In this document: positions 32,543 to 34,419 of the stretch, in pieces
Numbering within the stretch: position 1 is the stretch's first letter
How the letters are laid out: the number at the start of each line of letters is the position of its first letter
Origin: Eledone cirrhosa
Lineage: Eukaryota
Length of the DNA: 64,000 nt
Reading direction: 5' to 3'
NCBI GenBank assembly: GCA_964016885.1
Contig: OZ024748.1
Coordinates: forward strand, 27,590,001-27,654,000
Translations under genes and position numbers: made by a program
The notes under the pieces: model-generated
Seen by the model: only the letters and a program-made list of their open reading frames with translations
Databases searched by the model: none
What the model was told of the DNA's origin: nothing

Positions 32543-32743
32543 ATAGGAACGAGTAGGACCCCGACGGCTGAGCTCAAGCCGTTTCGACGGCTAATTCTGG
32601 ACTAATTCAGAATTAGCCGTCGAAACGGCTTGAGCTCAGCCGTCGGGGTCCTACTCGTTCCTATTACCCACTCTACTACCCTAAGTATTGAGTACTTTGG
32701 TGCGTTATTGTCCACCTGGTTCCTTACCACATTTCCTTCGTTA
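32543..32743 (+). mobile_element. Half-HHR fold-back element, copy 1
   Basis: Palindrome 32543-32664 centred on GACGGCTAATTCTG-loop-CAGAATTAGCCGTC, followed by GAAACGGCT(TGAGCTC)AGCCGTC and a unique tail ending in (TA)n. Confidence 0.8.
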
Positions 32744-32757
32744 TATATATATATATA

Positions 32758-33208
32758 TAAGCAATGAGTTATTTAATTTGTTGGTTATTCAACAAATTTA
32801 GTTTATAACAGATCAGAAGCACTCTACAATATTTCTTCTGGGGTATAATATCAATAATATTAATAAATGGAAACTATCTTTATAAATCTATATTTATTTT
32901 ATTATATATATGGCAGTATCGGTAGAGCGTCGGACGCCATGCTTTGCAGCATAGTTACGTCCCTTTACGGACTGAGTTCAAATCCCGCCGAGGTTAACTT
33001 TGCCTTTCATCCTTACGGGGTCGATAAAATAAAGTACCAGTAATACACTGGAGTAATTGCTGGCCTTGTGCCAAATGTAGAAACAATTATATGTATTTCA
33101 AGGGTGTTAAACATTTTGGAACGCACTCATCAGATAAAATACAAAAGTTGTTTTACAGATAGTGACATATTCAAGACAAGAACTTAGCGTTTTGAGTTCT
33201 GTTTGAAT
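32758..33208 (-). mobile_element. HHR-bearing PLE-type terminal module, interrupted by a SINE
   Basis: Homologous to 44210-44425 and 49080-49500. The HHR spans 32895-33141 (UAUUUUAU-CUGAUGA...GAAA) and is split in stem III by the SINE. Confidence 0.8.
32911..33088 (+). mobile_element. Main tRNA-derived SINE inside an HHR
   Basis: Near-full SINE flanked by TATATATA and TATATGTA (probable TSD). Confidence 0.92.
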
Positions 33209-33254
33209 ATATATATATATATATATATATATATATATATATATATATATATAT

Positions 33255-33461
33255 ATAACGAAGGAGGTGTGGTAAGGAACCAGATGGACCATAACGCACC
33301 AGAGTACTCAATACTTAGGGTAGTAGAGTGGGTAATAGGAAAATGTTTGACTCCGACGGCAGAGCTCGAGCCGTTTCGACGGCTATTTCTGGACTATTTC
33401 AGACCAGAAATAGCCGTCGAAACGGCTCGAGCTCTGCCGTCGGAGTCAAACATTTTCCTAT
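33255..33461 (-). mobile_element. Half-HHR fold-back element, copy 2 (inverted, diverged)
   Basis: Palindrome 33335-33461. Its tail 33255-33335 is the reverse complement of 32665-32743. Confidence 0.8.
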
Positions 33462-33508
33462 ATATATGTGTGTGTGTGTGTATTTATATATATATATATA
33501 TATATATC

Positions 33509-33710
33509 AATTAGTGTGGGATGCTTAAAGCGTTTGAGCACTCGATGCTCTTACAGAGCAGCTTCGAAGAATCGAGACGTATCTTGCGATTTCAGATCAG
33601 GTTCGATCATCGCATCGATTGTGCCTCGAGCTGGTCGCCAGAGAAACGATTGCAATATGTCTAATACATTTTATTTCGTCGCACCACTGATTCTCCGTTT
33701 CTTATGTGAT
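33509..33710 (+). mobile_element. Degenerate copy of the 23.05-23.3 kb HHR element
   Basis: Shares GGATGCTTAAAGCGT...GCACTCGATGCTCT and GTGCCTCGAGCTGGTCGCCAGAGAAACGATTG. The CUGAGGA core is deleted and GUA is changed to GCA. A further remnant lies at 43440-43500 (-). Confidence 0.8.
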
Positions 33711-34218
33711 ATATATATATATATATATATACATATATATATATATATATATATATACATATATATATATATACATATATATATATATATATATATATAT
33801 ATATATATACATATATATATATATATATATATACATATATATATATATATATATACATATATATATATATATATACATATATATATATATATATATATAC
33901 ATGTATATATATATATATATATATACATATGTATATATATGTATATATGTATATATATATATGTATATGTATATATATGTATATGTATGTATATAGGTAT
34001 ATGTATGTATGTATATATGTGTGTGTATATATATATGAGCATATATATGTATATGTATATATATATATATATATATATATATATATATATATATATATAT
34101 ATATATATATATATATATATATATATATATGTGTGTGTGTGTATGTATGTATGTATATATATATATATATATATATGTGTGTGTGTGTGTGTGTGTGTGT
34201 ATATATATATATATATAT

Positions 34219-34419
34219 ATAGGAACGAGTCGGACCCCGACGGCTGAGCTCAAGCCGTTTCGACGGCTAATTCTGGACTAAAAAGAATTAGCCGTCGAAA
34301 CGGCTTGAGCTCAGCCGTCGGGGTCCTACTCGTTCCTATTACCCACTCTACTACCCTAAGTATTGAGTACTTTGGTGCGTTATTGTCCACCTGGTTCCTT
34401 ACCACATTTCCTTCGTTAT
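34219..34419 (+). mobile_element. Half-HHR fold-back element, copy 3
   Basis: Near-identical to 32543-32743; differs in the loop and at a few bases. Confidence 0.8.

Follow-up and report, generated by a model that had tools for sequence, protein, structure and literature searches.

Palindromic insertions with hammerhead remnants in Eledone cirrhosa as candidate twin-primed ends of a Penelope-like element

Penelope-like elements (PLEs) have been described with inverted pLTRs, with tails and with palindromes at their junctions (PMC3846280, PMC8557442). The palindromes of Penelope have been explained by self-priming on an antisense template (PMC3846280, Discussion), and the tails and inverted ends of PLEs to resolution by an endonuclease (PMC8557442). 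In both of these texts the origin of the inverted ends and tails, and the choice between a sense and an antisense template, are stated as open. For a Penelope-like protein, cleavage and extension of both strands from two internal sites have been described, the tail lying between these sites (PMC11167929), and the promoter described for Drosophila Penelope is internal to the pLTR (PMC2377424). Paired hammerhead motifs on opposite strands, 100-700 bp apart, also are noted in PMC4209133. For LINE-1 (L1) insertions, an extra G at the 5' junction is described as the mark of a copied cap (PMC11702581).

Here we analyze a 64,000-nucleotide stretch of the Eledone cirrhosa genome (contig OZ024748.1, positions 27,590,001 to 27,654,000; the window), in which a first-pass annotation of the letters had pointed to palindromes at the ends of hammerhead-bearing retroelements. 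This was borne out, the ends being assigned below to the pLTR of a PLE. Inverted ends and tails are themselves known; what is presented here is evidence on their origin. Our literature search, which left outside its scope most subscription papers and the supplements of PMC11167929 (Figs S1, S2) and PMC8557442 (files S1, S2, Fig. S7), in which the family may be listed or comparable junctions shown, found no report of cap-marked double run-off insertions in PLEs.

The palindromes of the window and their parent element

Three palindromes of one family, designated family A, are present in the window, two on the forward strand and one on the reverse strand (Table 1). Each has an inverted arm and a sense arm, separated by a junction only a few bases long, with a tail of ~78 nt on one side, and each lies in (TA)n. 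Element positions are numbered from +1, the A of T(T/C)-AGTCC, counted on natural (unfolded) copies. The arms are ~55-60 bp in length, the longest being 59 bp, compared with at most 10 bp in 30 shuffles. As the first-pass annotation had reported, GAAA, stem III and GUC are present in all three copies, and the core strand of the hammerhead is missing from all of them. Copies 1 and 3 had also been suspected of a common origin. They differ at only 4 positions, and they share a tail variant that is found at 124 places genome-wide, compared with 32,919 exact matches to the 24-mer tail motif of the family in this ~3.0-Gb animal assembly; common descent is therefore likely. Their unique flanks are unrelated, and local DNA-level duplication between TA tracts may be the simplest route. 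Near-identical neighbours that lie 1.7-10 kb apart and have the same junction, resembling window copies 1 and 3, were seen at L196, L068 and L178/L179.

Table 1. Features of the palindromic insertions in the window (positions count from the first letter of the window)
Feature	Position	Strand	Remarks
Family C insertion	27050-27240		Inverted arm 27050-27131, junction repeat 27115-27145, tail segment to 27240
Family B palindromic insertion	27335-27595	-	Palindrome 27466-27595, CUGAUGA in both arms, axis upstream of core
Copy 1 (family A)	32543-32742	+	Whole insertion
Copy 1 inverted arm	32543-32603	-	Element +61 back to +1
Copy 1 junction	32604-32607		AATT between arms
Copy 1 sense arm	32608-32664	+	+5..+61; stem II 3' strand, GAAA, stem III, GUC, stem I 3' strand
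Copy 1 GUC cleavage triplet	C at 32644	+	Within sense arm
Copy 1 tail	32665-32742	+	+62..+139; AT common with TA repeat up to +141
Copy 2 (family A)	33257-33461	-	Whole insertion
Copy 2 tail	33257-33334	-	Another subfamily
Copy 2 sense arm	33335-33395	-	Begins exactly at +1 (AGTCCAG at 33395)
Copy 2 junction	33396-33400
Copy 2 inverted arm	33401-33461	+	+61 to about +1
Copy 3 (family A)	34219-34417	+	Whole insertion
Copy 3 inverted arm	34219-34279	-	+61 to +1
Copy 3 A run	34280-34283		After inverted arm
Copy 3 sense arm and tail	34284-34417	+	Sense arm from +6; identical to copy 1, including rare tail variant
Family D palindromic insertion	44070-44270		Minimal hammerhead-like motif (CUGAUGA...GAAA) in both arms
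Family D palindromic insertion	49361-49720		Minimal hammerhead-like motif (CUGAUGA...GAAA) in both arms

Upstream of the unfolded copies of family A lie a 3' UTR, a GIY-YIG domain and a reverse transcriptase (RT). In 14 of 30 loci found via the start of the open reading frame (ORF), the tail runs into a 5' UTR and the ORF, the copies standing in tandem. Because unfolded copies reach GIY-YIG and RT and tails reach the ORF, we assign the palindromes of the window to the pLTR end of a PLE on the basis of their sequence. Features of EN+ PLEs found in the family are a single ORF with RT followed by a C-terminal GIY-YIG (by eye); partial tandems of the pLTR, in which the tail is the sequence past the 5' pLTR (14 copies); and an inverted 5' copy beside the pLTR, at a distance of up to 45 nt in 144 of 197 sampled copies, with long examples at L062, L004 and L012. 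Natural open frames (L127, L133 and L062) carry YRDD and VIYQC...AYIG, again by eye. Pfam analysis of pieces of the ORF returned no families; its homologues are 1,850 unnamed sequences of ~700 amino acids. Frames labelled by eye as Penelope-like RT/GIY-YIG of other families were noted at L103:3008-5028 and L117:893-2357.

The motifs of the family A ORF are YRDD, DKT, RWR, a CxCX5C linker, CxxC and CxH, with one Cys between GIY and YIG. Judged by motifs only and by comparison with the published description, family A appears to match the Hydra clade: it has DKT, the CxCX5C linker, CxxC and CxH, it lacks CCHH and its target is (TA)n, and RWR stands at the place of the RWK motif of that clade. A first assignment to the Nematis clade was dropped, since the motifs fit Hydra better. 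The short palindromes of family A are a very abundant class in this genome that is explained as PLE insertions.

Unfolded copies contain stem I, a core of the form YUGANAA, G10.1, an imperfect stem II, GAAA, stem III and GUC at +39..+41, and they have the shape of a type I hammerhead (three stems, an unpaired core, GAAA and NUH). The 5' strand of natural stem II is G-YTCGGCTATT; the stem holds an insert of 35-40 nt, its apex is at ~-11..-3, and an inner hairpin pairs -18..-12 with -2..+5. Unconstrained minimum-energy folds were hammerhead shaped for two of five copies (L022 and L062) and not, or only partly, for L127, L117 and L034. The core pattern YUGANAA has 3,433 matches in all, and among the 100 matches listed G8 occurred in none (YUGANAA in 100/100). 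Unfolded copies with a core upstream of stem II, which the first-pass annotation had anticipated, consequently do exist, with YUGANAA in place of the CUGANGA that it had named. Positions 3 and 8 were U3-A8, a paired covariant, in 18 of 37 copies and C3-A8, a mismatch, in 19. An Rfam scan of the window returned no hammerhead and only low-scoring microRNA-like hairpins.

The window has other repeats. A tandem array with a 30-bp unit (~467 copies, one strand strongly C/A rich) occupies 33-14451, and further arrays lie at 54191-61361 (25- to 37-bp units, ~7 kb) and 62371-63629 (48-bp unit, 26 copies). A 35-bp perfect palindrome at 23265-23334 has no relative among the loci examined, and a similar sequence lies near 33570-33600. 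Copies of what we take to be a tRNA-like SINE are found at 32925-33090, 26500-26665 and 49300-49360. A degraded fragment of a family A arm, ending at +61, lies beside a 42-bp tandem array at 51985-52020.

Where the arms start and stop

In order to map the ends of the arms, 100 listed matches of the tail motif and 100 listed of the 124 matches of the tail variant were taken, 3 duplicates were dropped, and the remaining 197 copies were aligned to 14 natural references. The inverted arm, sought within 45 nt, starts at +61 in 117 of the 144 copies that have one, and the tail arm starts at +139..+141. Approximately 85% of the sampled copies span only +1..+141. Tail-arm ends (n = 197) fall in -10..+8 in 107 cases, in +9..+70 in 62 and upstream of -10 in 28; inverted-arm ends (n = 144) fall in -10..+8 in 109 cases and further upstream in 3. 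The per-base stop rate is 0.20 at +1..+2, compared with 0.003 at -100..-11 and 0.005 at +21..+40. In -7..0 the parse can run too far, by as much as 7 nt, because microhomology or A/T runs look like natural sequence there, and ATTC/GAAT microhomology blurs this interval. We refer to the boundary at +1 as the wall. The symmetry axes likewise are not random and cluster at +1. They had been described as centred exactly on the stem II loop, which was not confirmed: they lie at ~+1..+7, 3' of the natural apex, so that it is the inversion that creates the perfect "stem II" seen in the palindromes.

The two arms are often unequal. The inverted arm exceeded the tail arm by more than 10 nt in 33 of the 144 two-armed copies by automated call, against 8 in the opposite direction; by eye, 20 of the 33 hold, 10 reflect an internal deletion or overshoot and 3 are unclear. 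In 10-11 copies the inversion is non-overlapping, with +61..+1 beside +54..68 onward, which is the pattern of twin priming. Pairs of arms chosen independently of the tail (n = 16) comprised 13 with a +61 arm and a tail arm (3 of which are the window's own copies 1-3), 3 that were unclassified and none with two arms alike. Where the tail arm is long, the visible inverted arm also is long in 10 of 12 copies, and 16 of 28 long tail arms had none in the DNA examined. Contigs of four public runs, possibly from the assembly's own sample, contain TA-continuing loose ends at +61 and +141; a search of sequencing runs for the element listed none of RNA. Of the 14 ORF-bearing copies with a 5' pLTR, 11 continue through the core and 3 are interrupted at ~+16, +46 and +66; in none does the start coincide with +1.

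At the cleavage site, a weak pile-up (6 tail-arm ends in +41..+43, or 8 by eye) and a modest +42 peak among 480 pattern matches are both confounded by microhomology and by the base of stem III, and we do not claim a second wall there. One copy (L200, G000:C4:238384238-238385093) carries ~19 nt of filler exactly at the predicted cleavage site, +41/+42.

The other hammerhead-bearing families of the window served as controls; from their architecture alone we infer that families B, C and D are Penelope-like. A smaller palindrome at 27115-27145 had been grouped with the three large ones. The 12-bp inverted repeat exists, but it is the junction of a family C insertion and not of family A. Family C has 178 exact matches, of which 100 were listed and 6 of these omitted; 92 arms were parsed and 3 likely duplicates dropped. 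Relative to TC-AGTT, the ends of the 89 arms fall at -3..+10 in 36 cases, at -10..-4 in none, at -60..-11 in 9 and further upstream in 44, the sampling extending as far as +10. This wall lies 5' of the whole ribozyme, upstream of the core, so no downstream helix could stall RT there. Family B gave no clear wall among 30 loci picked by best match. In family D the axis is upstream of the core in both 44070-44270 and 49361-49693, and the arms of the latter palindrome exceed 150 bp.

The candidate RNA start at +1 and rival explanations

The wall in family A falls on the A of an initiator-like T(T/C)-AGTC motif. The consensus of the RNA polymerase II initiator is YYA(+1)NWYY, and a motif of the YYANWYY type stands at the wall in both families A and C. 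On the sequence, +1 is a putative transcription start. No downstream promoter element was seen by eye at +28..+32, judged against its consensus. A second start at -4 (TCATTT), which rests on 2-4 junctions, is not claimed.

The base before +1 was then compared between natural and junction contexts. In read-through arms it is T or C in 20 of 20 cases, with no G; genome-wide, 5,781 arms have G here, 959 have A and 22,955 have C or T. Free arm ends (n = 61) gave G 19 times, A 7, C 8 and T 27, and ends abutting the other arm (n = 21) gave G 5 times, C 12 and T 4. The G share among G and A expected from junction filler is 0.34, and the excess of G at free ends has a P value of 7e-5. T nevertheless is the commonest base before +1 despite this excess, 5 of 24 sampled G cases abut the other arm and could be templated, and in subfamilies with C at -1 a G before +1 is ambiguous. 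The same test is ambiguous for family C because its -1 base is C. Clean (TA)n-G-AGTCC junctions, for example those of L195 and L226, offer no other origin for the G. By analogy with L1, the non-native G before +1 would be a copied cap. Runs of A or T at +1, of which copy 3 is an example, are compatible with tailing or with slippage where a template ends. Recurrent wrong letters also are seen at arm ends, C for A at +1 and A for T at +3 (for example in L167, L185, L209, L027 and L057), and these look as if RT had misread modified bases adjacent to a cap.

The direct observations are the identity of the element, arm starts at fixed sites, arm ends concentrated at +1..+8, an excess of G before +1 and the absent core strand. 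The best model for them, and one that we regard as probable, is twin priming on one capped sense RNA with double run-off at +1 and head-to-head joining. A promoter would start capped sense RNA at +1, inside stem II, and the element protein would cut both strands of (TA)n. Priming would take place at +141 from one target end and at +61 from the other, each site having an AT-like match to the target at its end, and one RNA would template both cDNAs; the inverted arm of copy 1 would be the cDNA primed at the inner start site by the left target end. The outer polymerase would displace the inner cDNA, or would stop at it and yield a non-overlapping inversion. A collision of the two polymerases is unsupported, since tail-arm ends are not enriched at +61 in the 197 copies. 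Both cDNAs would run off the 5' end at +1, gaining a cap-templated C or A's, and their ends would be trimmed and then joined head to head via 1-7 nt of microhomology or A/T filler. The core strand would be absent from the short inserts because the RNA starts inside stem II, downstream of the core; never having been in the template, it would not have been overwritten.

Alternatively, the tail-side cDNA could reach +1, fold on a match of 1-4 nt, copy itself and be stopped or cut at +61. Run-off followed by fold-back accounts for the wall, for the G and for the agreement of the two arms in subfamily letters (67 of 75), and junctions such as TTCTG-AGTCC fit pairing of a cap-derived C with an internal G. 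It also has precedents in the self-priming proposed in PMC3846280 and the endonuclease resolution of the tail described in PMC8557442. However, the inverted copy would have had to end precisely at +61 in 117 of 144 cases, and the mirror-image and non-overlapping cases would have to arise later via loop inversion and deletion, with such secondary events required for at least 20 copies with a longer inverted arm (7-8 the opposite way). Moreover, 10 of 29 free ends of inverted arms also show a clear extra C past +1, and four copies bear a tail on the inverted arm as well. Later deletions inside palindromes could also yield longer inverted arms and non-overlapping inversions, so the asymmetry does no more than weaken fold-back. 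On balance, we consider run-off followed by fold-back unlikely.

Another explanation, which we judge improbable, is that both strands still prime but the wall reflects an uncapped cut end, or else a structural stall or a hot spot of microhomology within the long stem II. The natural inner hairpin covers the region, many ends lie at +5..+8 (at +3..+8, the base of this hairpin, there are 43 of 197 tail-arm and 40 of 144 inverted-arm ends), ATTC/GAAT matches join 9 of 197 copies identically and ORF-bearing copies pass +1. A stall does not predict the G excess, however, and the wall persists where the partner arm lacks the region: when the tail arm starts at +15 or beyond, so that a hairpin partner is missing, -2..+7 is still where 24 of 44 inverted arms stop, and no arm extends further upstream. 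The family C wall, at an initiator-like motif 5' of the entire ribozyme, also argues against it.

The first-pass annotation had itself proposed that cDNA snaps back at stem II, the hammerhead helix serving as the priming hairpin and the core strand being overwritten. The axes do fall in the stem II region, the short inserts lack the core and a few junctions resemble the natural loop (L055 and L021), but the natural loop is almost never kept. The axes cluster at +1..+8, at an initiator-like A with non-native filler and an excess of non-native G, rather than at the natural apex; few short tail arms, and no more than 3 of 144 inverted arms, extend to the 5' strand of stem II; and the inverted arm has one fixed start at +61. 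An inverted arm longer than the tail arm is excluded under snap-back, because cDNA can fold back only on what it holds, and the asymmetric calls and non-overlapping inversions above therefore count against it. In families B, C and D, moreover, the axes lie upstream of the core, and the palindromes of families B and D retain CUGAUGA in both arms. Snap-back is thus very unlikely to be the cause. A MITE-like nonautonomous palindromic DNA transposon, or a set of assembly artefacts, is suggested by short, palindromic, high-copy-number sequences with a TA target but is scarcely credible for a pLTR of an RT-encoding element whose junctions vary from copy to copy while its outer ends are fixed and whose same ends appear in run contigs. 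A non-LTR retrozyme, described as tandem repeats with a complete hammerhead per unit (bioRxiv 10.64898/2026.07.22.740005), was ruled out, as these are dispersed head-to-head inserts without a core.

The simple form of twin priming with run-off is challenged chiefly by the 14 ORF-bearing copies, none of which starts at +1; long copies therefore need another template (a read-through multimer or a circle) or a jump. We tentatively suggest that two RNA pools could exist. A capped linear transcript from inside the ribozyme would give abortive double run-off palindromes, the bulk of the copies, and an end-less template, either a ribozyme-processed circle or a read-through multimer, would give productive partial tandems, with two-site priming rolling past +1. 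Arms that are both short or both long (10 of 12), the 11 of 14 ORF copies that pass +1 and the L200 filler at the cleavage site fit this notion. If true, the two pools would tie the inverted pLTR, the tail, the tandems and the ribozyme into one cycle, and PLE start sites would be readable from any genome. The genome offers tens of thousands of independent PLE insertion outcomes, and these favour twin priming at fixed sites of a capped sense RNA over self-priming. The twin-priming model predicts the transcription start to the base.

Comparison with described systems

In the formation of retroviral minus-strand strong-stop DNA, cDNA begun near the 5' end of the RNA runs off the cap after a short distance. 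The products of family A differ in being primed by target DNA on both strands and in being fixed in the genome.

The PLE hammerheads described by Cervera and de la Pena (2014, PMC4209133) share with family A the type I geometry and the location in the pLTR, and the U3-A8 covariation is common to Schistosoma Cercyon and family A. Unlike the hammerheads described there, family A has a stem III of 5-6 bp, a 35- to 40-nt stem II insert that holds the inferred transcription start and, as the commonest variant examined, C3 with A8, a mismatch.

The Hydra clade of EN+ PLEs (Craig et al. 2021, PMC8557442) is described as having RT followed by GIY-YIG, DKT, CxCX5C, CxxC, CxH and no CCHH, a hammerhead in the pLTR, (TA)n insertion, an inverted 5' copy and a tail, all of which family A shares. 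Family A departs from that description in having RWR rather than RWK, a tail of ~80 nt compared with the 30-40 nt given for PLEs, a core of YUGANAA rather than the canonical one, and ~85% of its sampled copies confined to +1..+141.

As described in PMC11702581, twin priming of L1 resembles family A in its second cDNA from the other target end, its inverted 5' piece, its joining by microhomology and the extra G at full-length 5' junctions. In L1, however, the second cDNA is primed at varying sites and there is hardly any overlap between the pieces, whereas in family A the second site is fixed and the same 61 nt usually are covered twice, which gives a palindrome. Family A also differs from L1 in that there is no poly(A) priming.

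The closest parallel in vitro is with the Poseidon element of Anolis (PAc; Frangieh et al. 2024, PMC11167929), in which, as in family A, both strands are cut and extended, there are two internal RT starts and the target is AT rich. The main text on PAc is silent on inverted arms, a cap signature and run-off products. In family A, the two sites lie 80 nt apart in the 5' UTR, one per target end, and the arm starts in its genomic copies support the two start sites observed in vitro.
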